A stretch of 64,000 bases of DNA from Candidatus Methylomirabilota bacterium. Lineage in GTDB: Bacteria > Methylomirabilota > Methylomirabilia > Methylomirabilales > JACPAU01. How positions within the stretch are numbered: position 1 is the first letter of the stretch; the number at the start of each line of letters is the position of its first letter. The notes below the pieces were generated by a model. It ran no database searches. It saw only the letters and a program-made list of their open reading frames with translations, and was not told the origin of the DNA. Positions 10,026 to 54,377 of the stretch are shown one piece after another. Both the position numbers and the translations under genes were made by a program. Location of the stretch: positions 16,555 to 80,554 of the forward strand of contig JAKEHP010000027.1 in the NCBI GenBank assembly GCA_022614955.1, read 5' to 3'.

Positions 10026-11402
10026 ATGAGGAGGAAGAGGGAGTTTGTCCTGCTCGTCTTCTTCTCGCTCGTAGCGGTGGTACTCTTACCCGCCCCATTA
10101 GGAGCGCAAGTGGCACAAAAGCCATCGGTCGACTCCCTGGTGGCCGACCTGACCCACCCCGATGGCGCCGTCCGCACGGAGGCCTTGAGCAGGCTGGGAC
10201 AGCTCGGCGATCGATCGGCCATTCCCGCCCTGATCGAGCTCTTGCGGTTTGATCGGGCCCTCGAGCTCAACGTCCCCCCGGTGCTTGAGCGCCTTTCGGG
10301 ACAGAAGTTTGGCGATGATTGGGCGAAGTGGGTGGAGTGGCTCGAGAGGCAGAAGAACCTTCGGCCGAATCCAGGGTTTGTCGCGTGGAAGGGGACCCTG
10401 TTTCAGCTCATCGATCCCGCCTTTGGGGAGTTCTTATACCCGGGCGTGAAACACCGGGTCCGCATCGAGGAGATCGTGTGGGGCGGGGTGATCAAGGACG
10501 GGATTCCGGCTCTCACCAACCCGCGCCACGTCAAGCCGAGCGAGGCCACCTACCTGACCCCCGATGAGCTGGTCCTCGGCCTCTCCATCAAGGGGGACCA
10601 TCGCGCCTATCCATTGAGGATCATGGACTGGCATGAGATGGCCAACGACGTCGTCGGAGGGACTCCCCTGACGATCTCCTACTGAACGCTGTGTGGATCG
10701 GCGATCCACTACGAGACCACCGTGAGTGGTACCACATACGTCTTCGGATCCTCAGGGTTTCTCTTCAGGAGCAACAAGCTCATGTACGATCAGAGCACCA
10801 AGAGCCTCTGGCACAACCTGACCGGGGAACCTGTCGTCGGCCCGCTGGCTGACAGCGGGATCAAGCTGAAGGTCGGGCCGGTCGTGACCACCACCTGGCG
10901 CGACTGGCTCCAGGCTCATCCCGATACCGTGGTGCTGGACATCAACACCGGCTATCTGAGGGACTACACCCCGGGCAGACCCTACGGCCAGTACTTCGCG
11001 AGTCCCGACACCATGTTTCCTTCCTCGCCCCGGAGCGATCGGCTGAAAACAAAAGAGCATGTGTTTGTGCTGAGGCTCGGGGGGAAGGCGAAGGCGTATC
11101 CCCTGGAGGTGCTCGCCAAGGAGCCGGTGGTGAACGACGTCTTGGCGGGGACGAACCTCGTCATCGTCGCTACTGCGGCCACCCGGACCGTCAGGGCCTT
11201 CGAGCGAGGGTCACACCGGTTCCGCCGGGGGCAGGGGGTGATGGAGCTGGTCGACACGGCGACCGGCGAGGTCTGGTCCGTCCAAGAAGAGGCATTAGTA
11301 AACCCCGCCAGCGGGCAGCGGCTCGCTCGGCTCGGTGGTCACCTGGCCTACTGGTTTGGCTGGTTCGCCTTTTATCCGCACACGGAGGTCTATGGGAAGT
11401 GA
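10026..11402 (+). CDS. DUF3179-family protein with N-terminal signal peptide and HEAT-like repeat, and in-frame UGA (predicted Sec) in the family CPLC motif
   Basis: ORFs 9978..10685 and 10722..11402 share a frame across TGA 10683-10685. Read-through gives [19 protein letters not shown] where DUF3179 proteins have (T/S)YCPLC. The rest ([42 protein letters not shown]) matches the family. Confidence 0.7.
10693..10709 (+). promoter_or_regulatory. candidate bacterial SECIS hairpin
   Basis: Perfect 7-bp stem GUGGAUC / GAUCCAC with loop GGC, starting 7 nt after the UGA. Confidence 0.5.
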
Positions 11403-14442: not shown

Positions 14443-14649
14443 CCCTACTGACACGCGGAGACGGCCGGCCAGGCGAGCGCGTAGCGCATAAGAGACATAA
14501 AGGCTCTTCTCGGACGCGGCGAGCACGGCCGCGGCCTGCGGTCCTGCCGGAAGGGAGCTGAAGTGGGCCACCATCTGGGTCACTCCCTGATACGAATGAC
14601 TCAGCGAGTTGGCTTGCGGAGGACACCCGACTGTGCTATGTCTTCATGT

Positions 14650-15040
14650 CTAGCGGCGAACCGGAAGTCGCGCCCAGCATTTTCCACATCAAACGGGACA
14701 CAACCTCGGCGACCGCCCAGGCGCTGGATCGAGCCGGCCCCATCCCCCTCCTGGCTGCCGGGGCATCACCTACTCCTGGCTGGGAGACGATCTGGGCGGC
14801 TACCGATCTGGGGGCTACGAGGCCTATTGCCGGACCCCAAGCTTCGCTCGGGGACTGCGCCGGCTGGAAGCCCTGGGCGCCGGGAGCCCCACCGCGATCC
14901 TGTGCGCCGAGCGACTCCCCTGGCGGTGCCATCGCCGGTTCATCGCGAGTGCCCTCCGGCTCCGGGGGTGGGAGGTGGTTCACACCGTCGAACGGGACCG
15001 GACCTGCGCTCCCGCTGGGGGCCAGGAAGGATACGGCTAG
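14650..15040 (+). pseudogene. DUF488-family gene, frameshifted/decayed
   Basis: Frame ending at TAG 15038-15040 reads GITYSWLGDDLGGYRSGGYEAYCRTPSFARGLRRLEALGAGSPTAILCAERLPWRCHRRFIASALRLRGWEVVHTV (DUF488 C-terminal hallmark CAE..PWRCHR). It has no start codon. Upstream DUF488-like pieces (RKSRPAFS, AQALDRAG) lie in other frames. One shift sits at a G-run near 14759-14762. Confidence 0.55.
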
Positions 15041-15126
15041 CCGCGCTTCGAATCCGGCCGCGCCCCCCTTGCATCGAACCCGGAGAAGGCGAGCGGCGCC
15101 GGCGACCTCCCCCGAAGGAGAGACCC

Positions 15127-15639
15127 ATGACCACGCACCTGCCCGGCTGGCCGCTCGCCCTCTTTCGGATCGCCTTCGGGTTCCTTTACCTGGACATGGC
15201 TTTGCAAAAAGCCCCCTGGGTGGTGACCGACGGGCACCGGTTCGGCTGGCTGTACGGGTACATCGAGAAGGAAATCGCCCACCCCACCTTTGGGTGGTAC
15301 AAGGCCCTCCTGACGAACGTCATACTCCCGAACTTCACTTTCTTCGGCACCCTGACATTTCTGACCGAGGTCGCCCTGGGGGTGAGCCTACTCCTGGGCA
15401 TCTTCACTAGGCTCGGCGGCATGGCCGGCTTCCTCTGGCAGGTCAATATCGCGCTCGGGTCCTACAGCCTGCCGGGCGAATGGTTCTGGATCTGGCCCCT
15501 GCTCACCCTCCCGCAGTTCTGCTTCGCCTTCTGCGGGGCCGGGCGGGTCTGGGGGCTCGATGCCTGGCTGGATCCCGCCCTCAGCCGCCGGGCGGAGGGT
15601 GCCCCCGCCTGGGCACGCCTGCTCCGGTACGCCGTCTGA
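15127..15639 (+). CDS. DoxX-family membrane protein
   Basis: 170 aa, 4 TM, LALFRIAFGFLYLDMALQK N-terminus. GAAGGAG RBS. Confidence 0.65.
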   Translation: MTTHLPGWPLALFRIAFGFLYLDMALQKAPWVVTDGHRFGWLYGYIEKEIAHPTFGWYKALLTNVILPNFTFFGTLTFLTEVALGVSLLLGIFTRLGGMAGFLWQVNIALGSYSLPGEWFWIWPLLTLPQFCFAFCGAGRVWGLDAWLDPALSRRAEGAPAWARLLRYAV

Positions 15640-31917: not shown

Positions 31918-32976
31918 TCAGGGGACCACCTGGATCTTCCCCGCCGGCCCCGCCGTCACCTCGCCGATCCGCGCCGCAGCCAGCACCCCTTTGGTGTTGC
32001 TCAAGCGCCGGAGCATCTCCTGACTCTTCGCCTTCCCCACGGCCATGAGGAGGCCCCCCGAGGTCTGGGCGTCGGAGAGGACGAGGCGGACGTCCTCGCC
32101 CATCCCGGGAGCCCATTCCACGTTCCCCTCCAGCGATTTCAGGTTCCGGCGTGTCCCGCCGGGGCAGATCCCCTCGCGGACCAACTTCCAGGCCTCGGGG
32201 AGGACGGGCACAGCCCGAAGCGAGATCGTCGCCCCCACCCGGCTGGCGGCGGCGACCTCGCGCAGATGACCCAGGAGGCCGAACCCGGTGATGTCCGTGC
32301 AGGCGTGAACACCCCCGACCGCCTCCATGACCTCGGCGGCATAGCGGTTCAGCGTGCTCATCGTGGCCACCGCCAAATCCACCGTGGCCGCCTCCACCTT
32401 CTGGCGCTTGATCCCGGTGGTGATGATCCCCATGCCGAGTGGCTTCGTCAGGATGAGATCGTCCCCGACCCGGGCCCCAGCGTTTGTCAAGATCTTTTCG
32501 GGATGCACGACCCCCGTTACCACCAGGCCGTACTTCGGCTCGGGGTCGTCAATGCTGTGCCCGCCGACGATGGACGCCCCTGCCTCCACCACCTTGTCTG
32601 CCCCTCCCTTCATGATGGCCTCCAGGACCGACAGGGGGAGGGTGCCGGTGGGAAAGCCGACCACGTTCAGGGCGAACAGTGGGCGCGCCCCCATGGCGTA
32701 GATGTCGCTCAGGGAGTTGGCCGCCGCCACCGCCCCGCAGGCGTAGGCATCGTCCACGACGGGGGTGATGTAGTCCACCGACTGGACGATGGCCAGCTCG
32801 GGTGTCAGGCGGTACACCGCCGCGTCGTCGGAGGTCTCCGGCCCCACGAGGACGTTCGGATCGGTGATCTTGGGCAGCTGGCCCAGGACCTGGGCCAGGT
32901 CCGACGGACTGATTTTGCAGGCTCACCCCGCCCCGTGGGAGAGACTGGTGAGCCGGACGGGCTCCTCGGTGGGCAT
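31918..32976 (-). CDS. selD: selenide, water dikinase (selenophosphate synthetase) with in-frame UGA (Sec) in the N-terminal glycine-rich loop
   Basis: Track ORF 31918..32847 starts inside the gene. Extending upstream in frame across TGA (32925-32923) to ATG 32976 (AGGAGA RBS) gives MPTEEPVRLTSLSHGAG-U-ACKISPSDLAQVL...GPETSDDAAVYRL, the SelD GxG(C/U)xxK motif. Confidence 0.85.
32886..32902 (-). promoter_or_regulatory. candidate SECIS hairpin in selD
   Basis: 7-bp stem GGACCUG / CAGGUCC with loop GCC, starting 20 nt after the UGA. Confidence 0.4.
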
Positions 32977-38890: not shown

Positions 38891-38943
38891 GGAAGGTCGT
38901 GTTCTGAGTTTTGGATCTCGCCCACAGGGCGAGGGGGAAGGTC

Positions 38944-39393
38944 ATGAGGATCTCGGCGAAAGGGGATTACGCCACCCGGGCCATGCAGGAACTGGCGATG
39001 AACTATAACCGGGGACCCCTCCCGATCGAGGCAATTGCCAAGCGCCGGCATATCCCCGTCCGCTACCTGGAGCAGCTCCTCCTGATCCTGAAGCGGGCCG
39101 GCTTCCTGGAGAGTAAGCGCGGCGTGAAGGGCGGCTACTACCTGGCCAAGCCGCCGGGCCAGATCACGGTCGGGGAGATCGTCCGGCTGATGGACGGCTC
39201 TCCGGCCCCGATCTTCTGTGTGGACCCCACCAGCCATGACAAGTGCCCGGTGGAGCCGATCTGCGGCTTCCAGAGCGTCTGGGACGAGGTCTACCAGGCG
39301 ATCGCCAACATCATTGACAAGACCACGCTCGAGGACATCTGCCACCGCGCCATGCTGAAGATCGCACCGGGCGCCGTCAGCTACCGGATCTAG
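38944..39393 (+). CDS. Rrf2-family transcriptional regulator (IscR/CymR-like, three C-terminal Cys)
   Basis: MRISAKGDYATRAM...IPVRYLEQLLLILKRAGFLESKRGVKGGY wHTH. C-x8-C-x5-C cluster (FCVDPTSHDKCPVEPIC). Confidence 0.85.
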   Translation: MRISAKGDYATRAMQELAMNYNRGPLPIEAIAKRRHIPVRYLEQLLLILKRAGFLESKRGVKGGYYLAKPPGQITVGEIVRLMDGSPAPIFCVDPTSHDKCPVEPICGFQSVWDEVYQAIANIIDKTTLEDICHRAMLKIAPGAVSYRI

Positions 39394-39424: not shown

Positions 39425-40339
39425 ATGGCTCGGGTTGCCCGGAACGCGCTAGATCTCATCGGCGGGACACCTCTGGTCGCCCTCCCTCGGCTGAGCCCTC
39501 GAGGCGGGGCCCGCATCCTCGGGAAGCTGGAGTCGGTCAACCCGGGGGGCAGCGTGAAGGACCGGATCGCCCTGTCCATGGTGGAGGCGGCGGAGCGGGA
39601 CGGGCTTCTCAAACCCGGCGCGACGATCGTGGAGCCCACGTCGGGCAACACCGGGATCGGCTTGGCTCTGGTCTGCTCCGTGAAGGGGTATCAGCTCATC
39701 CTCACAATGCCGGACGACATGAGCGTGGAGCGGCGAACGCTCTTGGCCCGTTTCGGGGCGGAGGTGATCCTGACGCCGGCCATCGAGGGGATGACGGGGG
39801 CGGTGTACGCCGCGGAGGAGCTCTGCCGGGAGCACCCGGACTACTTCATGCCCCAGCAGTTTGAGAACCCCGCAAACCCGGAGATCCACCGCCAGACCAC
39901 GGCGCGGGAGATTCTGGAGGCCACCGGGGGCGACCTGCACGCGTTCGTGGCTGGCGTCGGGACCGGGGGGACCATCACCGGGGTGGGGGAGGTCCTCAAG
40001 CGAGAGGTCCCGGGGGTCCGGGTAGTGGCCGTGGAGCCGGCCCGGTCCCCGGTCCTGCAAGGGGGGAAGGCCCGTCCCCACGCCATCCAGGGGATCGGCG
40101 CCTCCTTCGTCCCCGGGGTCCTGAACCGTGCCGTCCTGGACGAGATCATCGCGGTGGCCGACGACGATGCCCTGAAGATGACGGGGCGCCTGACCCGGGA
40201 GGAAGGGCTGTTGCTGGGGGTCTCGGCGGGGGCGAATGTCTTCGCCTCCGTGAAGGTGGCCCGAGAGCTGGGCGCCGGCAAGGTAGTGGTCACGGTGCTC
40301 CCCGACACGGGCGAGCGCTACCTGAGCGTCCCCCTGTAA
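39425..40339 (+). CDS. cysK: cysteine synthase (O-acetylserine sulfhydrylase family)
   Basis: IGGTPLV, PLP-lysine motif GGSVKDR, TSGNTGIGLA, GVGTGGTITG. Confidence 0.9.
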   Translation: MARVARNALDLIGGTPLVALPRLSPRGGARILGKLESVNPGGSVKDRIALSMVEAAERDGLLKPGATIVEPTSGNTGIGLALVCSVKGYQLILTMPDDMSVERRTLLARFGAEVILTPAIEGMTGAVYAAEELCREHPDYFMPQQFENPANPEIHRQTTAREILEATGGDLHAFVAGVGTGGTITGVGEVLKREVPGVRVVAVEPARSPVLQGGKARPHAIQGIGASFVPGVLNRAVLDEIIAVADDDALKMTGRLTREEGLLLGVSAGANVFASVKVARELGAGKVVVTVLPDTGERYLSVPL

Positions 40340-40383: not shown

Positions 40384-41475
40384 ATGCCCGTGACGGTGTA
40401 CATCCCCACCCCATTCCGGAAGCTGACGGGGAACATCGCCCAGGTGGAGGCGGAGGCGGCCGACCTGGCCGGTCTCCTCGCCGTCCTGGAGGACCGTTTC
40501 CCCGGCCTCCGGGAACGGGTCGTGGACGAGCTGGGGGCCATCCACCGCCACGTGAACGTCTACGTCAACGACCGGGCGGTGGAGGACCTGGGGGGGGCCC
40601 GGACCCCCTTGCGAGACGGGGACGAGGTAGCCCTGATCCCGGCCATCGCCGGCGGTGCTTTGCCATTCAGCGAGGAGCAGATCCGGCGGTACAGCCGCCA
40701 CATTATTCTCCCGGAGATGGGCGGGAAGGGGCAGCGGAAGCTCTTGAACAGCAGCGTCCTCCTGGTCGGGGCGGGGGGACTGGGCTCCCCGGCCGGCCTG
40801 TACCTGGCGGCTGCGGGGGTAGGACGGATCGGGATCGTGGACTTCGACCGGGTGGACCTGAGTAACCTGCAGCGGCAGCTCCTCCACCGGACGAAGGACG
40901 TGGGGCGGCTCAAGGTGGACTCGGCGGCGGACACCATTGCCGAGATCAATCCGGACGTGAAGGTGGAGGCCCATCCGGTCCAGCTCTCGAGTGCCAACGT
41001 GAAGGAGATCCTGCAGGCCTACGACGTGGTGGTGAACGGCTGCGATAACTTCCCCACCCGCTACCTGCTGAACGACGCCTGCGTTTTCCTGAAGAAGCCT
41101 CTCGTGGACGGGAGCCTCTTCCGGTTCGAAGGGCAGGCCGCGGTCTTTCTCCCCGGTCAGGGCTGTTACCGGTGCCTCTATCCCTCCCCGCCGCCGCCAG
41201 GCCTCGTCCCCTCCTGCCAGGAGGCCGGGATCCTCGGGGTCCTGTGCGGGATCATCGGGTGCATCCAGGGAATCGAGGCGATCAAAGTCCTGCTCGGGAT
41301 CGGAGAGTCGCTGGCCGGACGCATGCTCTTCTTTGACGCGATGACCATGGAGTTCCGCCAGGTCCAGTTCCGCCGGGATAAGGCCTGCCCGGTCTGCGGC
41401 GATGCCCCGACGATCACGGACTTGCTTGACTACCACGAGTTCTGCGGGGTCCCCGCGGGGCAGAGGGTGAGCTAG
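40384..41475 (+). CDS. fusion protein: N-terminal MoaD/ThiS-like ubiquitin-fold sulfur carrier (ending ...PAIAGG) joined directly to a MoeB/ThiF-type E1 adenylyltransferase
   Basis: Residues 1-92 are paralogous to the two free MoaD-like genes in this window and end in AIAGG. The E1 domain follows after a two-residue (Ala-Leu) linker (ALPFSEEQIRRYSRHIILPEMG, VGAGGLGS, CYRC...CPVC zinc site). No stop or frameshift at the junction. Confidence 0.85.
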   Translation: MPVTVYIPTPFRKLTGNIAQVEAEAADLAGLLAVLEDRFPGLRERVVDELGAIHRHVNVYVNDRAVEDLGGARTPLRDGDEVALIPAIAGGALPFSEEQIRRYSRHIILPEMGGKGQRKLLNSSVLLVGAGGLGSPAGLYLAAAGVGRIGIVDFDRVDLSNLQRQLLHRTKDVGRLKVDSAADTIAEINPDVKVEAHPVQLSSANVKEILQAYDVVVNGCDNFPTRYLLNDACVFLKKPLVDGSLFRFEGQAAVFLPGQGCYRCLYPSPPPPGLVPSCQEAGILGVLCGIIGCIQGIEAIKVLLGIGESLAGRMLFFDAMTMEFRQVQFRRDKACPVCGDAPTITDLLDYHEFCGVPAGQRVS

Positions 41476-41808
41476 ATGACGTTCGGCTTTCTCCTGACCA
41501 CCTCGCCCGAGCGGGCCGATGCCCGGACGGTCATCCGGCTCGCAGAGGCGGCGCTCGAGACCGGCCACCGCGTGGAGCTGTTCCTGATGAACGACGGGGT
41601 CTACAACGTCGTGGCGGCGCCCAAGCACCCGGTGAGCGGCGACTTCGTCCGCCTGATGGAGTTCGGTGCGGCGATCACCCTGTGCGCGACGAGCGCGGGA
41701 CCCCGGGGAGTGACGAAGGAGAACGCCCTCCCGGGCGTGCGCTTCGGCAGCCAGCATGACCACGCCCAGATGGTCGCCCGGGCCGACCGGGTGCTGACCT
41801 TCTGCTGA
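41476..41808 (+). CDS. DsrE/TusD-family sulfur-relay protein
   Basis: 110 aa with FLMNDGVY and active-site-type LCATSAGPRG. Confidence 0.8.
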   Translation: MTFGFLLTTSPERADARTVIRLAEAALETGHRVELFLMNDGVYNVVAAPKHPVSGDFVRLMEFGAAITLCATSAGPRGVTKENALPGVRFGSQHDHAQMVARADRVLTFC

Positions 41809-41812
41809 GGGG

Positions 41813-42166
41813 ATGATGGGTAAGCAGGTGACGGTCCTCATCCGGCGGCCGCCGCTCACCTCGGAGAAGACGGCCGAGGCGTTGCGGGTTGCCGTGGGCT
41901 ATACGCTGGCCGGGGGGCAGCGCGTAACCGCGTGCTTCGTCGGGGACGGGGTCTATGCCGTCGGTACCTTGCGGCCCGCTGTGGCCGGCGCTCCGGACCT
42001 GGAGAAGCACCTCGTAGCCCTCAAAGCGCTCGGCCAGCGCCTGGTGGCCGACGCCGCCGCCGTGCGCCAGCGACCGGGCCTCACCCTGCGGCCTGATGTC
42101 GAGGCCCTGGAGCTCGGAGAGATTCTGAACCTGCTCACCGACGCGGACATGGTCGTCCCGTTCTAG
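41813..42166 (+). CDS. DsrF/TusC-family sulfur-relay protein
   Basis: 117 aa; FVGDGVYAV...DADMVVPF pattern; position between the DsrE- and DsrH-like genes. Confidence 0.7.
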   Translation: MMGKQVTVLIRRPPLTSEKTAEALRVAVGYTLAGGQRVTACFVGDGVYAVGTLRPAVAGAPDLEKHLVALKALGQRLVADAAAVRQRPGLTLRPDVEALELGEILNLLTDADMVVPF

Positions 42167-42181
42167 GCCGGAAGAAAGCCG

Positions 42182-42439
42182 ATGCGGATCCTCCACATCA
42201 TCCGGCACCCGAGGGAGGAGATGGGCTGGCAGGTGGCCGAGGCTCAGGCCGGGCGCCACGAGGTGGCGGTCCTGCTCCTGCAGGACGGCGTGCTCTCCCG
42301 GCGCGAGACGGCCCTGCCCCTGTACGCCTCGGCGGTGGACCTCGAGGCCCGCGGGCTTCCCGCGGACCGGGGCAAGCCCCTGAGTGACGCCGAGATCGTG
42401 GAGGTGCTCGCCGCCCACGACCGGCTCGTCACCTGGTAG
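42182..42439 (+). CDS. DsrH/TusB-family sulfur-relay protein
   Basis: 85 aa; LLLQDGV...YASAVDLEARGL...LVTW terminal pattern. Confidence 0.65.
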   Translation: MRILHIIRHPREEMGWQVAEAQAGRHEVAVLLLQDGVLSRRETALPLYASAVDLEARGLPADRGKPLSDAEIVEVLAAHDRLVTW

Positions 42440-42448
42440 GAGAGACGC

Positions 42449-43465
42449 GTGCTCAAGGCGCTCATCCTGGGACTGCCGGTGGGGCTGGCCTTCGGCTACG
42501 CCCTGCAGCGGGGACGCTTCTGCCTGAACACCGCCTTCCGGGATGTCTTCCTCATTCGCGACTCGACGCTGGTCCGGGCGTGGGCGCTGGCGCTGCTCAT
42601 CCAGATGGCCGGGGTCCATGCCCTGGCGGGACTCGGCTGGTTCCAGATGGGGATGGCCCCCTTCTGGTGGCAGGCCGCGCTCCTGGGCGGCCTCGTCTTC
42701 GGCTGGGGGATGGTCCTCTCGGGCGGGTGAACGACGGGCGTCTCCTACCGGTCGGGTGAGGGGATGGTGGCCTCGTGGATCAGCCTGGTGGGATTTGGCC
42801 TCGGGATCATGATGACGAGCGGCGGCCTCCTCGAGCCCCTGCAGCATCGGCTGCGAACCGCGGTCATCGGCGAAGGCCCACCGGCCACGGCGGCCAGCCT
42901 GCTCGGTCTCAGCCCGTGGATCGTCATCGCGGCCTTCGCCCTCCTGGTCGGCTTCTGGTTCCTCCGGAGGCCGGCCAGGGTGGCGTACCAGGGAGGCTGG
43001 ACCTGGCCTGTGACCGGACTCGCCATCGGCCTCATCGCGCTTGCCGCCTGGCCGCTCTCCGCGCTAACCGGCCGGCAGTTCGGGCTTTCGGTCACGGAGC
43101 CCGTCTATTCCTATATGCGGGTGGCCCTCCTGGGCCAGGTGGAGGCCCTGAACTGGGCGAGCGTCATGTGGCTGGGGATCCCCCTGGGCTCGTACGTCTC
43201 GGCCCGCTGGCACGGCGAGTTCAAGTGGCGGAGCCCTGGGCCCCAGCGCCTCCTCCAGGCCCTCGGGGGCGGGGTGGTGATGGGAATCGGCGCCGCGATC
43301 GGCGGCGGTTGTACCGTGGGACACAGCCTGACCGGGTTTTCCACCCTGGCTATGTCGAGCATCGCGGCGACGGCCGGGATCGTAGCGGGGGTCTGGTCCG
43401 CGACCCTCATTCTCTTTGGTGACGTGCTGGTCGGAAGGAGCGTGCGACATGCGGAGCGAGCGTAG
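42449..43465 (+). CDS. YeeE/YedE-family (TsuA-like) sulfur/selenium transporter with in-frame UGA (predicted Sec) replacing a conserved Cys
   Basis: ORFs 42449..42730 and 42764..43465 share a frame across TGA 42728-42730. Read-through gives VLSGG-U-TTGVSYRSGEG (family motif GGCxxG). The second-half motif GGGCTVGHSL retains Cys. About 9 TM in total. Confidence 0.7.
42742..42763 (+). promoter_or_regulatory. candidate SECIS stem-loop in the YeeE-like gene
   Basis: CUCCUACC / GGU(G)AGGGG stem with one bulged G and loop GGUCG, starting 11 nt after the UGA. Confidence 0.35.
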
Positions 43466-44396
43466 CAGACGGGCCAGCGTGGCTGTGGTGGCGGTGGCCC
43501 TCCTCCTGGCGTGGCCAGCCGGTGTGCTGGCGCAGTGCTGGGGACAGGAGGCGGCCAAGGAGAGGTTCGCCAATCCCCGTCTTCTGGCGGAGACGAAAGA
43601 AGTCGCCGACCATGTGGGGGACCTCCAGCAGCGGCTGGTGGACCTCCGGCTCAAGGCCGACCCGGAGGGCCGGGAGGCATACCGGAAGGGGCACGTCCCC
43701 GGAGCCGTCTATGTGGCCTGGCGGGAGCTGGACGATGTCCCGTCCAACCGGCAGGGCTTCCCGATGCCGCCGGCGAAGGCCGAGGCTCTCTTCAGCCGGC
43801 TCGGGATTGATGGCTCGGTACACGTGGTCGCCTACGATGATGCCGGCGGGCTTTTGGCGGCCCGGCTCGTCTACGTCCTGGACTTCTTCGGCCACACCAA
43901 GGCCTCCGTCCTGAACGGCGGCCTCACGAAGTGGACGAAGGAGGGACGGGCGCTCACGACCGACGAGCCCAAGGTGGCTCCCCGGAAATTCGTGGCCAGG
44001 CCGAACCCGGACCTGATCGTGACGGCCGACTGGCTGAAGAAGAACCTGAAGGAAAAATCGTTTGCCCTGGTGGACTCCCGGAGCACGGCGGAGTACGCGG
44101 GCACGAACGAGGACCCCGACATCAAGGCCAAGGGGCATATCCCGGGGGCGGCGCACCTCGACTGGGCGAGCACGATCACCGAGGAGAAGACCTTCAAGTC
44201 GCCGGAGGAACTGAAGAAGCTCTTCGCCGGGGCCGGGGCCAAGCCCGGGACGCCCGTCATCACCTACTGCCGGACCGGCGTGCGGTCGGCCCATAACTGG
44301 TTCGTGGCCAAGCTCCTGGGCTACGCCGACGTGAAGAATTACGACGGCTCCTGGATTGACTGGGGCAACGACCCCACGGCACCCGTGGAGCGGTAG
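43449..44396 (+). CDS. exported two-domain rhodanese (thiosulfate sulfurtransferase)
   Basis: Signal peptide MRSERSRRASVAVVAVALLLAWPAGVLAQ. Active-site loop YCRTGVRSAH. C-terminal DGSWIDWG. Confidence 0.85.
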   Translation: MRSERSRRASVAVVAVALLLAWPAGVLAQCWGQEAAKERFANPRLLAETKEVADHVGDLQQRLVDLRLKADPEGREAYRKGHVPGAVYVAWRELDDVPSNRQGFPMPPAKAEALFSRLGIDGSVHVVAYDDAGGLLAARLVYVLDFFGHTKASVLNGGLTKWTKEGRALTTDEPKVAPRKFVARPNPDLIVTADWLKKNLKEKSFALVDSRSTAEYAGTNEDPDIKAKGHIPGAAHLDWASTITEEKTFKSPEELKKLFAGAGAKPGTPVITYCRTGVRSAHNWFVAKLLGYADVKNYDGSWIDWGNDPTAPVER

Positions 44397-44681: not shown

Positions 44682-45719
44682 ATGCGCGCGCCAATGACGA
44701 GCCAGGGATGGGCAGCGATGTTCCTCGGGGTGCTTGTGGTGACGGCCGGCTGCGGGACGCTGGCCGGGGCGGGAGGCTCCGGCTACGAGGTCTGGGTGGC
44801 GAACCAGGCGATCAACAAGGTCCAGATCCTGGACGGGAAGACCCTCGAAGTCATCGCCGAGGTCCCTGCCGGGACAAAGCCGCACAACGTGACCTTCACC
44901 GCCGATGGGAAATCCGCCTGGGTGGCCAACGTCGGCTCCAGCAATGTGACGGTCATTGACACGGCGAGCCGGAAGACGGTGGCAATTATCCCAGCCGGGA
45001 AGACCGCCCACGCCGTCACCTTCTCGCCGGACGGGAAGCGGGCCTACGTGGCCAATCCGGGGGATGGGACGGTCAGTGTTGTTGACGCCCTCAAGCACGA
45101 CCTGGTTAAGACCATCTCGGTCGGCAAGGCCCCGGCCCTGGTCGTCTTCTCCCAGGACGGCAAGAAGGCATACGTCTCCAACGGCGGGGATGCGACGCTC
45201 TCCGTGATTAATACGGCCACGCTCGAGGTGACCAAGACGGTCCCGAACGTCGGCAAGGGGGCGATGGGGATGGTCCGCAGCACCGATGGGGGGCGTCTCG
45301 TCGTCACCGGGGGTGGGGAGAACAAGGTCTCCATCGTGGACACCCGAGAGGACGCGGTGATCAAGGATCTGGTTCACGGGAAGGAGGCCCACGGGATAGC
45401 CCTCACGGCCGACGGGAGGCAGGCGTGGGTCCCGAACCGCCAGTCCGGGGACATCTCCATCATTGACGTGGCGACCGGCGGTCTCGTCGCCACGATCCCG
45501 AACGTGGGGGACAAGACGGACATCATCGCCTTCTCCCCGGACGGGACGCGCGCCTTCGTCACGACGCGCGGGCAGGCGCAGACCGGCGATCCCCAGCTTG
45601 TCACCGGGAAGGAGCCGGGCATTTCCGTCATTGACGTCGCCTCGCGCAGCGTGATCAAGAAGGTGCCCCTGGTAGGCGGCGATCCCCACGGGGTGGCAAC
45701 CCGTCGCGTGGGCCCGTAG
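44682..45719 (+). CDS. YVTN-type beta-propeller repeat lipoprotein
   Basis: Lipobox LVVTAGC. Seven or so repeats of the P..VTFSPDGK.AYVAN...VSVID type. Confidence 0.8.
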   Translation: MRAPMTSQGWAAMFLGVLVVTAGCGTLAGAGGSGYEVWVANQAINKVQILDGKTLEVIAEVPAGTKPHNVTFTADGKSAWVANVGSSNVTVIDTASRKTVAIIPAGKTAHAVTFSPDGKRAYVANPGDGTVSVVDALKHDLVKTISVGKAPALVVFSQDGKKAYVSNGGDATLSVINTATLEVTKTVPNVGKGAMGMVRSTDGGRLVVTGGGENKVSIVDTREDAVIKDLVHGKEAHGIALTADGRQAWVPNRQSGDISIIDVATGGLVATIPNVGDKTDIIAFSPDGTRAFVTTRGQAQTGDPQLVTGKEPGISVIDVASRSVIKKVPLVGGDPHGVATRRVGP

Positions 45720-45764: not shown

Positions 45765-46007
45765 ATGTGCGAGTCCGTGCAAGTGGACGGGGAGCTGAAC
45801 CTCCGGGGGGAGGTCTGCCCCTACACCTTTGTCAAGTCGAAGCTGGCCCTGGAGGACCTGGAGCCGGGCAAGGTCCTCCGGGTGATCGTGGACAACCCCG
45901 AGTCGGCGGAGAACGTCCCGGCGAGCCTGGTCAGCGAGGGGAACGAGGTGTTAGCCGTGGGCCCGCTCGGGGGGGAGGCCTGGAGCATCCTGGTCAAGAA
46001 GCGCTGA
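45765..46007 (+). CDS. TusA/SirA-family sulfur carrier (second copy)
   Basis: LNLRGEVCPYTF motif; 80 aa; GAGGAG RBS. Confidence 0.8.
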   Translation: MCESVQVDGELNLRGEVCPYTFVKSKLALEDLEPGKVLRVIVDNPESAENVPASLVSEGNEVLAVGPLGGEAWSILVKKR

Positions 46008-46106
46008 GGGCGGAAAATGGAATCCGGTTGACTTCTGGAAGTCGCTGCGCTACGTGTCAGCGTCGCACCCTTCTTGGGGCGCGCCGGGATAATGAGGAGC
46101 GGCAGG

Positions 46107-46391
46107 ATGGCGACCATTGAGGTCCACGTCCCTCAGATTTTGCGGAAGCACACGGCCGGCGCCAAGACCCTGAGGGCGTCCGGGCGGACCGTCCGGGAGG
46201 CGCTGGAGGACCTGGAGCGGCAGCATCCGGGCTTCCGGGAGCGGGTGCTGGAGGACGGCGGCCGTCTGCACCGCTTCGTGAACATCTACGTGAACGACGA
46301 GGACGTCCGCTTCATCCAGGCCCTGGACACGCCGCTGAAGGATGGGGACGTTCTCTCCATCCTGCCGGCCGTGGCTGGCGGATGGGCCTGA
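46107..46391 (+). CDS. MoaD/ThiS/CysO-like ubiquitin-fold sulfur carrier (ends ...AVAGG-WA)
   Basis: 94 aa, paralogous to the N-domain of the 40384 fusion and to 62370..62711. Directly upstream of a CysM-like gene. Confidence 0.8.
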   Translation: MATIEVHVPQILRKHTAGAKTLRASGRTVREALEDLERQHPGFRERVLEDGGRLHRFVNIYVNDEDVRFIQALDTPLKDGDVLSILPAVAGGWA

Positions 46392-46437
46392 GCAGCGCCG
46401 GCCGGCCGGGCGGAAGCCCCTCCGGCGCGGGGGAGTA

Positions 46438-47373
46438 ATGTCCGAGCGGGACATCGTCAGTGCCATCGGGAACACGCCTCTGGTGGAGCTCCCGCGGATG
46501 AGCCCGAAGCCATCCGTCCGGATTTTCGCCAAGCTGGAGGGGCACAATCCCACCGGGAGCCTGAAGGACCGGATCGCCAAGTACATGATCGAGGAAGCAG
46601 AGCGGACCGAGGGTCTGACACCGGCGAAGACGCTCCTCGAGCCGACCAGCGGGAACACCGGGATCGCCCTGGCGATGATCGGGCGGCTGAAGGGCTACAA
46701 GGTCCGGGTGGTCACGCCCGAGAATATCACCGAGGAGCGGAAGCAGCTCCTCGCCCTCTACGGGGCCGAGATGATCTTCTCGGAGGCAAAGCGGGGGACG
46801 AACGGCTCGATCGAAATGGCCAAAGCGCTGGCCGCCGCGGACGCGACGTACCATCTCCTCTACCAGTATGGCAATCAGGCGAACCCGAAGGCGCACTATG
46901 AGACCACCGGTGCGGAGATCCTCCGCGACATGCCGGAGGTGGACGTGCTCGTAGCGGGCCTGGGCACCGGCGGGACCCTGATGGGGGTCGGCCGGCGACT
47001 CCGGGAGGCAAACCCGCGGGTAAAGATCATCGCCACGGAGCCGCACCCCGGAGACACGGTCCAGGGACTTCGGAGCCTGGACGAGGGGTTCATCCCGCCG
47101 ATCCTCGACCAGAGCCTGCTCGACGGAAAGATCATAGTGGACTCCCGGACAGCCTTCACCATGACCAAGGAGCTGACCCTAAAAGAGGCGATCTTTGCGG
47201 GGGTCTCCTCAGGGGCCGTGCTCTATGGCGCGATCCGGACGGCCCTCAAGATGGACCGGGGCACCATCGTGTGCGTGTTCTGCGATGGGGGGTGGAAGTA
47301 CATGAGCCTCGGCATCTGGCAGAAGGAGGTCGCGGAGTACGAGGAGGGGGTCCAGGCTCATGTGTGGTGGTAG
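46438..47373 (+). CDS. cysM: cysteine synthase B-like (CysM-type; likely carrier-thiocarboxylate dependent)
   Basis: IGNTPLV, TGSLKDR, TSGNTGIALA, GLGTGGTLMG. Gene order carrier-then-CysM as in CysO/CysM systems. Confidence 0.85.
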   Translation: MSERDIVSAIGNTPLVELPRMSPKPSVRIFAKLEGHNPTGSLKDRIAKYMIEEAERTEGLTPAKTLLEPTSGNTGIALAMIGRLKGYKVRVVTPENITEERKQLLALYGAEMIFSEAKRGTNGSIEMAKALAAADATYHLLYQYGNQANPKAHYETTGAEILRDMPEVDVLVAGLGTGGTLMGVGRRLREANPRVKIIATEPHPGDTVQGLRSLDEGFIPPILDQSLLDGKIIVDSRTAFTMTKELTLKEAIFAGVSSGAVLYGAIRTALKMDRGTIVCVFCDGGWKYMSLGIWQKEVAEYEEGVQAHVWW

Positions 47374-53318: not shown

Positions 53319-54377
53319 CTAGCGCTGGAGGAGGGCCCCGAGCGACGGCCGGAGGATTCCCCGCTCCCAGGCCGCCAGGTTCTGTGGGTCGGATTTCCCC
53401 CACACGAAGAAGAGCGCCATCGCCCCGTAGAAGGGCAGGTGCCCCACCAGCTCCTCTGCACCGAAGATGCCCAGGGTCAGGTTGAAGGGGAACCAGGCGA
53501 TGACGATGATGTCCCGGAGGAAGGTCCCGCTCAGGATGCAGAGGCCGACCAGGAGTTCCACCGCACCGATCATCAGCACGAACTGGGCATCCGTGAGGGG
53601 GATGCCGAGTGCGGGGAGGAAATTCAGGGGGTACTCCGCCAGGAAGTCCACGGCCATCGGGACGTTGAGAAGCTTCTCGGTGAAGGCGACGACGATCAGG
53701 CTCAGGCCGATCCCCACGCGCAGCATCGGGACGGCCCGCACGACGAGGGCCGGGCTCGGCTCCCACTTCGGGAAGAGCGCCCGGTCCACGGCAAGGGGTC
53801 CCCGCCCTGCACAGACGAAAAAGGCGCTGAAGCCCAGGATGTGGATCGCCTCCAGCATCGGTTCGACCCCAATCACGAAGAGACCGGCCCCCCACATCAG
53901 GGCCAGGAGGAGGGCGCAGAGGCGGGTGCCCGAGCCATACAAGAGGCCGAGCATCACCCCGATCTGCCCCAGGGTGAACAGATGGGCCCACATCCCCCCC
54001 AGGCCGTTGTTGGGGCTGAAGAGGGTGTGGTCCAGACCGTTTACCATCAGGGGGACGCCGAGATGAACGGCAAGGACGAGAGGCATAAAGGCGTACAGCG
54101 CATCTCGTGTCCCGGGCGTGCCGCCGAGGTCGTGGGGGCCGGGGATGACCGAGCGCTGCCCCCGCCATCGCCAAAGGAGCAGCCCCACCGCCCAGAGCGC
54201 GATCGGTCCCCCGATCGCCAGCCACGTCCAGGGGTCCGCGAGCGCCTCGGCGCGAAGCGGGTAGGCCTCGGCGTCGAGGAACCACTTTTCGTGCGCTTCG
54301 GCAGGGTGCCCCAGGGCAAACACAATTCCCGGCCCCCCGAGGAGCATTGCGCAAAGGACCTTCCGATCAGCTCTCAT
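53319..54377 (-). CDS. polytopic membrane protein of unknown function (DoxX-like C-terminal half)
   Basis: 352 aa, about 9 TM, signal-like N-terminus. Coding-like hydrophobic periodicity. Confidence 0.6.
   Translation of the reverse strand: MRADRKVLCAMLLGGPGIVFALGHPAEAHEKWFLDAEAYPLRAEALADPWTWLAIGGPIALWAVGLLLWRWRGQRSVIPGPHDLGGTPGTRDALYAFMPLVLAVHLGVPLMVNGLDHTLFSPNNGLGGMWAHLFTLGQIGVMLGLLYGSGTRLCALLLALMWGAGLFVIGVEPMLEAIHILGFSAFFVCAGRGPLAVDRALFPKWEPSPALVVRAVPMLRVGIGLSLIVVAFTEKLLNVPMAVDFLAEYPLNFLPALGIPLTDAQFVLMIGAVELLVGLCILSGTFLRDIIVIAWFPFNLTLGIFGAEELVGHLPFYGAMALFFVWGKSDPQNLAAWERGILRPSLGALLQR

Follow-up and report, generated by a model that had tools for sequence, protein, structure and literature searches.

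In the YeeE transporter of Spirochaeta thermophila (StYeeE), the cysteines C293, C91 and C22 lie ~7 Å apart along the constriction of an hourglass-shaped protein (PMC7449682). The middle residue C91 (C94 in E. coli) is essential, cannot be substituted by serine and is disulfide-bonded to C22 in the crystal structure (PMC7449682). The relay carries on to Cys17 of the TusA-like partner YeeD (PMC11073785). According to the model of the structure papers, which do not mention selenocysteine (Sec), the three cysteines guide thiosulfate by S-H-S hydrogen bonds (PMC7449682, PMC11073785). Here we describe a gene for a transporter of this type from a Candidatus Methylomirabilota bacterium, in which an in-frame UGA stands at the position of the central cysteine and which is very probably a genuine selenoprotein gene. 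The gene lies in a 64,000-nucleotide (nt) stretch of DNA, which is referred to as the window; all coordinates are counted from its first letter.

Sec-containing members of the family have been catalogued before. The ISME J catalogue of Peng et al. 2016 has an entry for a 'YeeE/YedE family' selenoprotein, made up of 5 sequences from 5 genomes (PMC5029168, supplementary file 4), and Sec-YeeE/YedE appears under PF04143 in the selenoproteome reviews of 2022 and 2026 (PMC9312934, PMC13188914). The later review gives the motif GUxSG and the exemplar WP_012471001.1, and places the family among 'transporter subunits predicted to contain Sec' (PMC13188914). The family name is absent from the main text of the 2008 Global Ocean Sampling (GOS) paper, which the reviews cite for YeeE/YedE selenoproteins. 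A first reading of the window made from the sequence only had proposed a candidate new selenoprotein and was not aware of a described Sec-containing member. This claim of novelty did not survive, as Peng et al. 2016 and the two reviews already list the family: the window gene is a further clade or member of a catalogued selenoprotein family and not a new kind of system. In the literature searched, the catalogue entries come with neither a functional nor a structural reading, and no statement was found that equates the Sec of YeeE/YedE with the middle relay cysteine of the solved structure. The clade itself and the placing of Sec at the middle cysteine of the relay may therefore be new here.

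Results

A YeeE/TsuA-type reading frame interrupted by a single UGA

The gene, its start signal, the codons of the three relay positions and the hairpin behind the UGA are located as follows.

42438..42442 (+), Shine-Dalgarno sequence AGGAG, 6 nt 5' of the GTG start, overlapping the TAG stop of the upstream DsrH-like gene (read off the sequence)
42449..43465 (+), Sec-type YeeE/TsuA (PF04143) membrane transporter gene, 338 amino acids (aa), GTG start, TAG stop, predicted Sec94 (Pfam, alignment with 6LEO)
42521..42523 (+), TGC codon of Cys25, equivalent to StYeeE C22, where the relay reaches the cytoplasm beside TusA/YeeD (alignment; PMC7449682, PMC11073785)
42728..42730 (+), in-frame TGA, predicted Sec94, equivalent to StYeeE C91, the central, essential cysteine (alignment; TGA in 32/32 Sec-type sequences)
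42740..42765 (+), SECIS-like (selenocysteine insertion sequence-like) hairpin: 5' arm 42740-42749, loop GGUCG 42750-42754, 3' arm 42755-42765, bulged G 42758 (folding, criteria for bacterial SECIS elements, bSECIS)
43310..43312 (+), TGT codon of Cys288, equivalent to StYeeE C293, the periplasmic substrate-binding cysteine (alignment)

The plus-strand interval 42449-43465 forms one frame of 339 codons that ends in TAG, and TGA 42728-42730 is its sole internal stop. An open reading frame (ORF) finder breaks the gene into 42449..42730 (93 aa, GTG start) and 42764..43465 (233 aa, ATG start). The sequence-only reading had stated that these two ORFs share one frame and are split by the TGA alone, that the UGA falls within VLSGG-U-TTGVSY, and that cysteines are kept near residues 25 and 288. 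The 339-codon frame and the peptide around the UGA confirmed this; C25 (in RGRFCLN), U94 and C288 (in GGGCTVGHSL) are the only Cys or Sec residues of the read-through protein. Its further statement that the downstream piece has no usable ribosome-binding site held in part. ATG 42764 is immediately preceded by the purine-rich, Shine-Dalgarno-like GGUGAGGGG, but the spacing of just 0-2 nt is too close. The same ATG falls within the 3' arm of the hairpin.

The read-through protein matched Pfam PF04143 (Sulf_transp) with an E value of 2.7e-77 and 260.8 bits (cutoff 27) over model positions 1-309 of 310, and this end-to-end match bears out the earlier description of a full-length YeeE/YedE-type protein. 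A search against solved structures aligned residues 7-324 with StYeeE (PDB 6LEO, E 6.6e-48), and a nine-transmembrane (nine-TM) hourglass fold is predicted from this 318-residue alignment. U94 aligns with StYeeE Cys91, and the C91A mutant structure 6LEP has alanine at the same column. All three relay positions of StYeeE, C22, C91 and C293, are matched, by C25, U94 and C288, respectively. The UGA thus sits in the conserved cysteine column, which the sequence-only reading had proposed to check by alignment, and it takes the place of the essential chalcogen in the middle of the conduction path. The best NCBIfam matches were the TsuA equivalog models NF052577 (230.1 bits, cutoff 400) and NF041049 (188.4 bits, cutoff 645). 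The YedE/FdhT models NF033796 and TIGR04112 gave partial matches of 96.3 bits (cutoff 350) and 47.2 bits (cutoff 200).

Conservation of the UGA and its cysteine counterparts

Protein searches found dozens of clusters of 204-240 residues, which were 57-93% identical to the query and covered only its C-terminal 56-69%; all full-length matches were ≤58% identical. Orthologue DNA was taken from JGI, Logan, NCBI, ENA and GTDB-representative assemblies and then read upstream of the C-terminal pieces. Each Sec-type C-terminal piece was preceded by an in-frame N-part of 93 codons and then TGA at the identical codon. The TGA was present at this codon in 32 of 32 distinct Sec-type sequences with 51-98% protein identity, which come from independent metagenome-assembled genomes (MAGs) of Methylomirabilota/NC10/Rokuibacteriota; chance could by no means account for such a recurrence. 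The motif GG-U-TTG is typical, and GG-U-ASG was found in three more distant Methylomirabilales loci (L040-L042). Every full-length database homologue has cysteine at the UGA column (GGC, homologue motif GGC[AG]SG), and TGC or TGT stands at the UGA position in the DNA of loci L026, L028, L045, L047, L049 and L051. These Cys forms stand at the same syntenic position as the Sec forms, in the order Rrf2, CysK, MoaD-MoeB, YeeE, TusA, followed by CysM, JAB, TauE and sulfite reductase.

The 11 codons from the TGA to the next ATG keep the protein sequence (TTG[VIL][ST]YRxGEG) and contain synonymous changes. The codon equivalent to ATG 42764 is CTG, TTG or GTG in the orthologues L021, L025, L042 and L043. 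Taken together, the conserved TGA, the evolving 11-codon bridge and the non-conserved ATG rule out a sequencing error or a pseudogene and make a reading as two polypeptides very unlikely. One locus (L017) has a garbled N-terminal stretch with an extra stop at approximately positions 60-200 (…CMNTANTYARSNV*SRNKKMSRKAVLIQ…), probably because the assembly is chimeric there or the copy is disrupted.

Genome-wide reassignment of UGA was considered and rejected, since TGA is the terminator of 17 of the 45 family-supported genes of the window. Apart from the DUF3179 gene described below, the other TGA-bridged ORF pairs in the window were same-frame neighbour genes or antisense shadows of annotated genes.

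In a rough neighbour-joining tree, the window gene fell into a large clade of Sec forms only (GG-U-TTG type). The sister group contains Sec forms (GG-U-ASG; L040, L041, L042) interleaved with Cys forms (GGCASG/GGCGSG; P0006, P0008-P0017). Because of this interleaving, the tree suggests repeated Sec/Cys switching of the positional orthologue in Methylomirabilales.

The hairpin downstream of the UGA

With the U of the UGA taken as nt 1, the stem joins nt 13-22 to nt 28-38 and leaves one G bulged, and nt 23-27 form the loop. The hairpin starts 10 nt past the UGA, close to the 11 nt given for a bulged stem-loop in the sequence-only reading, and its core has a folding energy of -12.0 kcal/mol. The bSECIS criteria, as quoted in PMC13188914, are a loop of 3-9 nt with G in its first two positions, an upper stem of 4-16 base pairs (bp), a spacing of 16-37 nt from the UGA and a minimum free energy (MFE) of ≤ -7.5 kcal/mol. 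With the 5-nt loop GGUCG, a bulged stem of 10 bp, a spacing of 19 nt and -12.0 kcal/mol, the window hairpin lies within all of these limits. The cores of 28 Sec-form hairpins ranged from -6.8 to -13.4 kcal/mol, four of them (-6.8 to -7.3) being slightly weaker than the energy limit, and those of five Cys-form genes folded to just -2.3 to -6.1 kcal/mol. Orthologues truncated at this site and lacking a conserved hairpin, which the sequence-only reading had named as a contrary case, did not occur.

The arms of the hairpin coincide with the codons of the conserved peptide (S/T)YRxGEG, and synonymous-site tests were therefore used to separate RNA constraint from protein constraint. The synonymous codon entropy (32 sequences, 12-codon windows) was lowest from codons -1 to +7, with 0.59-0.69 bits compared with ~1.0 elsewhere. 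The stem codons are frozen in the Sec forms: TAC in 32/32, CGG of the six-fold degenerate Arg in 32/32, GGT in 29/32 and GAG in 32/32. The five Cys-form genes vary at these codons (TAT/TAC, CGG/CGA, GGT/GGC/GGG and GAG/GAA). GGT is rare at other Gly columns, and the loop codon varies freely. The native sequence folded more stably than its synonymous recodings in 7 of the 11 loci tested (z -1.6 to -2.8), and in four of them this was the most extreme window of the gene. Overall, the support for a functional SECIS element is good, though not conclusive.

A sulfur-assimilation cluster around the gene

The gene lies within a conserved cluster on the plus strand, the members of which are given below in their order.

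38911..39393 (+), Rrf2-family regulator, head of the conserved sulfur-assimilation cluster (family search; synteny conserved)
39425..40339 (+), cysteine synthase A, CysK (TIGR01139, 426 bits, cutoff 351)
40384..41475 (+), fusion of a MoaD/ThiS-like domain with an E1 adenylyltransferase of the MoeB/MoeZ type, for the activation of sulfur carriers (NCBIfam; Pfam ThiS and ThiF in orthologous loci)
41476..42439 (+), three small DsrE/DsrF/DsrH-like (TusDCB-like) sulfur-relay genes, 41476-41808, 41813-42166 and 42182-42439
43449..44396 (+), two-domain rhodanese, thiosulfate/3-mercaptopyruvate (3-MP) sulfurtransferase-like, loop YCRTGVRS, overlapping the YeeE stop by 17 nt (NCBIfam, translation)
44682..45719 (+), beta-propeller of the YncE type, leader resembling that of a lipoprotein (…LVVTAGC), putative start (family search; leader judged by eye)
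45765..46007 (+), sulfur carrier of the TusA/YeeD type with its Cys in the motif CPYT, putative start (PF01206, 5.5e-20)
46074..47373 (+), ThiS/CysO-like carrier (46074-46391) and CysM-like cysteine synthase (46342-47373) (family search)

The DsrE/F/H-like assignments are based on weak, sub-threshold NCBIfam matches and on Pfam DsrE/DsrH matches in two orthologous loci (L001, L049). The rhodanese has an N-terminus resembling a signal peptide of the Tat or general secretion (Tat/Sec) type, MRSERSRRASVAVVAVALLLAWPAGVLA, as judged by eye, and is weakly similar to the ExtH-type rhodaneses of selenite/tellurite reduction operons. Its leader and that of the beta-propeller would suggest extracytoplasmic processing of sulfur upstream of the transporter. 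The TusA/YeeD-like protein, which is the likely cytoplasmic acceptor, is encoded two genes 3' of the window Sec-YeeE gene; in the Cys-form orthologues it adjoins YeeE. Sulfite reductase, a second rhodanese, TauE and ATP sulfurylase are encoded farther along the cluster. To judge by their families, the MoaD-E1 fusion, the ThiS/CysO-like carrier and CysM look like a protein-thiocarboxylate (CysO-CysM type) pathway of cysteine synthesis alongside CysK. In orthologous loci, a JAB/Mec+ protease is added to the set of MoaD-MoeB fusion, CysO-like carrier and CysM.

Elsewhere in the window, the sizeable ORFs 53319-54377 (-) and 14563-15639 (+) have a good coding signal and little or no family assignment: the 352-aa product has no Pfam or NCBIfam match and the 358-aa product has a weak DoxD match only.

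Other selenoprotein genes in the window

Two further genes of the window contain an in-frame TGA.

31918..32976 (-), selD (selenide, water dikinase) with its own in-frame TGA 32923-32925, motif SHGAG-U-ACKISP (TIGR00476, 396.7 bits, cutoff 125)
~10026-11402 (+), DUF3179 (PF11376) gene with in-frame TGA 10683-10685, motif SY-U-TLCG (UxxC) (translation, Pfam)

The selD gene is situated on the opposite strand, 10 kb from the Sec-YeeE gene and close to purine genes; it is not transcribed together with Sec-YeeE. A Sec-type selD ~8 kb from Sec-YeeE, likewise next to purine genes, was found in four further MAG loci (L002, L032, L034, L037). DUF3179 with the motif UxxC/T is a listed selenoprotein family. 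In the window, nt 11-27 behind its UGA form a 7-bp hairpin without mismatches around a GGC loop, and the selD and DUF3179 UGAs alike precede hairpins whose apical loops, at nt 18-23, contain G. The selD gene is shortened to ~309-325 aa by ORF finders and in public gene calls. On a near-identical contig (L052), the 84-kb NCBI MAG contig CDHKUS010000014.1 (GCA_975200995.1), with which the left part of the window is collinear, the NCBI annotation divides the DUF3179 gene in two. The phylum is reported to be very rich in selenoproteins, and 63 selenoprotein genes were predicted in one Methylomirabilota MAG (PMC13188914).

Discussion

We hold with high confidence that the gene encodes a Sec-containing YeeE/TsuA sulfur importer with a SECIS-recoded UGA94, which feeds cysteine synthesis. 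UGA94 would be recoded to Sec via the in-gene SECIS hairpin 10-35 nt downstream, and selenophosphate for Sec would be provided by the Sec-containing SelD encoded 10 kb away; the incorporation of selenium at residue 94 is deduced from the DNA sequence. Three chalcogens would then line the narrow centre of the hourglass, from C288 towards the periplasm through U94 in the middle to C25 towards the cytoplasm. Judged from homology and gene context, thiosulfate or sulfane sulfur is the best-supported substrate of such an importer feeding cysteine synthesis. By analogy with the characterised YeeE, thiosulfate, or sulfane sulfur from it, would be taken up at the periplasmic side and handed from C288 to U94, to C25 and on to a cytoplasmic carrier of the TusA/DsrEFH type. 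This carrier would supply the MoeZ/CysO-CysM and CysK cysteine-synthesis enzymes of the same operon.

Sec is a stronger nucleophile and a better leaving group than cysteine, and with its low pKa it is deprotonated at physiological pH. A U94-C25 selenenylsulfide could form where StYeeE forms the C22-C91 disulfide. Sec may improve the relay step because of these nucleophile and leaving-group properties, the low pKa and the possible selenenylsulfide with C25. A more far-reaching idea, which we consider less likely than not, is that YeeE-type transport proceeds by covalent chalcogen exchange and not by a hydrogen-bond relay, the Methylomirabilota clade having a Sec-dependent transmembrane sulfur relay. 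The exported rhodanese would pass sulfane sulfur or thiosulfate to C288, and the constriction would be crossed as a transient Se-S adduct on U94 with delivery to TusA/DsrEFH. The U94-C25 selenenylsulfide would be the resting or reset state. On this idea, the natural selection of Sec at the C91-equivalent position would argue against the current hydrogen-bond relay model, and the clade would, if this is true, be a natural experiment on the YeeE mechanism.

Several observations weigh against the assignment as a SECIS-recoded importer of the TsuA type. ARAGORN detected no tRNA of any kind in the window and no tRNA-Sec in the window and 17 loci, no selA or selB was found by Pfam and NCBIfam among the ~50 window genes, and none of selA, selB and tRNA-Sec was present in the 10 kb past the left edge of the window (on GCA_975200995.1) or in the fetched flanks. 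No stability excess over synonymous recodings was seen in 4 of 11 loci. The folding energy in comparison with dinucleotide shuffles was not significant (z -0.49; the sequence has 69% GC). Part of the 3' arm, GGUGAGGG, is present in Cys forms too, since the conserved peptide GEG is encoded there. An analysis of 27 sequences by RNAalifold and pair counting revealed no compensatory covariation, with one double change and shuffles that were equal or better; since the hairpin is nearly invariant, this result is uninformative rather than negative. Of the folding and covariation analyses suggested in the sequence-only reading, the former placed the hairpin within the bSECIS limits and the latter did not contribute. 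Both TsuA equivalog scores lie under their cutoffs, and the protein is TsuA-like by its sequence and not a certified TsuA equivalog.

The public annotation corresponds to a different reading, in which translation stops at UGA 42728 (93 aa) and restarts at ATG 42764 (233 aa) to give a split transporter like PmpB/PmpA. The gene callers of JGI, NCBI, ENA and Logan all annotate Sec-YeeE as two pieces, half-size members of the YeeE family, PmpA and PmpB, exist (PMC11582611), and a purine-rich stretch precedes the second ATG. We regard this reading as very improbable: the essential central Cys/Sec and 11 conserved, coding-evolving residues would be exactly what is lost, the known half-size members are split near mid-protein and retain the C91-equivalent cysteine (PMC11582611), four orthologues have CTG, TTG or GTG in place of the ATG, and the Shine-Dalgarno-like sequence abuts it. 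The idea of a pseudogene, a sequencing or assembly error or a strain-level nonsense mutation draws on the single base change that turns TGC or TGT into TGA, on the errors that MAG assemblies hold and on the garbled N-terminal region of L017. It is effectively refuted by the 32 distinct sequences of 51-98% identity from many independent samples and assemblers, which all have the same TGA, intact frames and conservation on both sides of it.

Reading of the UGA without selenium, for instance by near-cognate decoding or a suppressor that inserts Cys or Trp, with the hairpin as a mere read-through stimulator, would agree with the lack of selA, selB and tRNA-Sec in the window and fetched flanks, and with a Sec call that has been made from sequence. 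This too appears most unlikely, given the Sec-type SelD and the DUF3179 protein with its published UxxC selenoprotein motif in the same window, the fit of the hairpin to the bSECIS consensus, the replacement of a redox-active cysteine by UGA as in a classic Sec/Cys pair and the documented Sec richness of the phylum. A genuine selenoprotein could also import selenium species (selenite, selenosulfate or selenide) in a YedE-like manner and feed SelD. YedE family members are tied to selenium metabolism (PMC5322559), including a YedE-like protein of M. maripaludis (PMC11097638), selD is 10 kb away, and the neighbouring rhodanese has its weak ExtH-type similarity. We consider a selenium importer unlikely, though less remote than selenium-free reading. 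The protein scores 230 bits with TsuA compared with 96 and 47 bits with the YedE/FdhT models, which are far under their cutoffs, and its gene is part of the conserved Rrf2-CysK-MoeZ-...-CysO-CysM-sulfite reductase-ATP sulfurylase cluster. The Cys-form orthologues sit in the same sulfur operon, and selD belongs to the other strand by the purine genes. The connection with YedE-type selenium metabolism drawn in the sequence-only reading is therefore not upheld by these scores and this operon.

The Sec-containing YeeE/TsuA sulfur importer, which we prefer to these alternatives, is of interest since selenoproteins that are membrane transporters are rare. A lineage with Sec at the essential middle position and with Sec/Cys switching offers a natural variant that could separate a hydrogen-bond relay from covalent or nucleophilic chemistry. 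For annotation, the YeeE, selD and DUF3179 genes of the window are all fragmented by public pipelines, which systematically mis-annotate a conserved sulfur-uptake gene of Methylomirabilota/NC10 bacteria by splitting it. The advance is incremental, the family being already catalogued and the phylum already known to be Sec-rich.

Comparison with known systems

Like the published Sec-YeeE/YedE proteins, the window protein belongs to PF04143 and has a single Sec in a G-U-x-x-G loop, and the GG-U-ASG of its sister orthologues is an exact GUxSG. Judged by the motif, the Sec column is probably the same in the published family and in the window gene. Unlike the published motif, the window clade has GUTTG, with Thr for Ser, and it comes from Methylomirabilota and not from the organism of the exemplar.

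SoxT and PmpAB are similarly YeeE-like, with the same conserved cysteines and a proposed role in sulfur import for cytoplasmic TusA-dependent pathways (PMC11582611). In contrast to the window protein, they serve sulfur oxidation or signalling and carry Cys, and PmpAB are half-size subunits (PMC11582611). With YedE/FdhT (NF033796, TIGR04112), the window protein shares the PF04143 superfamily and an association with selenium biology. It differs in that its matches to these models are weak and partial and its gene context is sulfur assimilation; the selenium link of YedE is one of gene context, and Sec is not described in YedE.

The closest counterparts of known function are TsuA/YeeE of E. coli and of S. 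thermophila (6LEO/6LEP/8J4C), with which the window protein shares full-length homology, the three relay positions, the cysteine-biosynthesis context and a TusA/YeeD-like partner gene nearby. The window system differs from them in having Sec in place of the central Cys91, in the position of TusA two genes downstream and not adjacent, and in the further members of its operon, namely a rhodanese that is apparently exported, a beta-propeller resembling a lipoprotein and proteins of the DsrE/F/H type.

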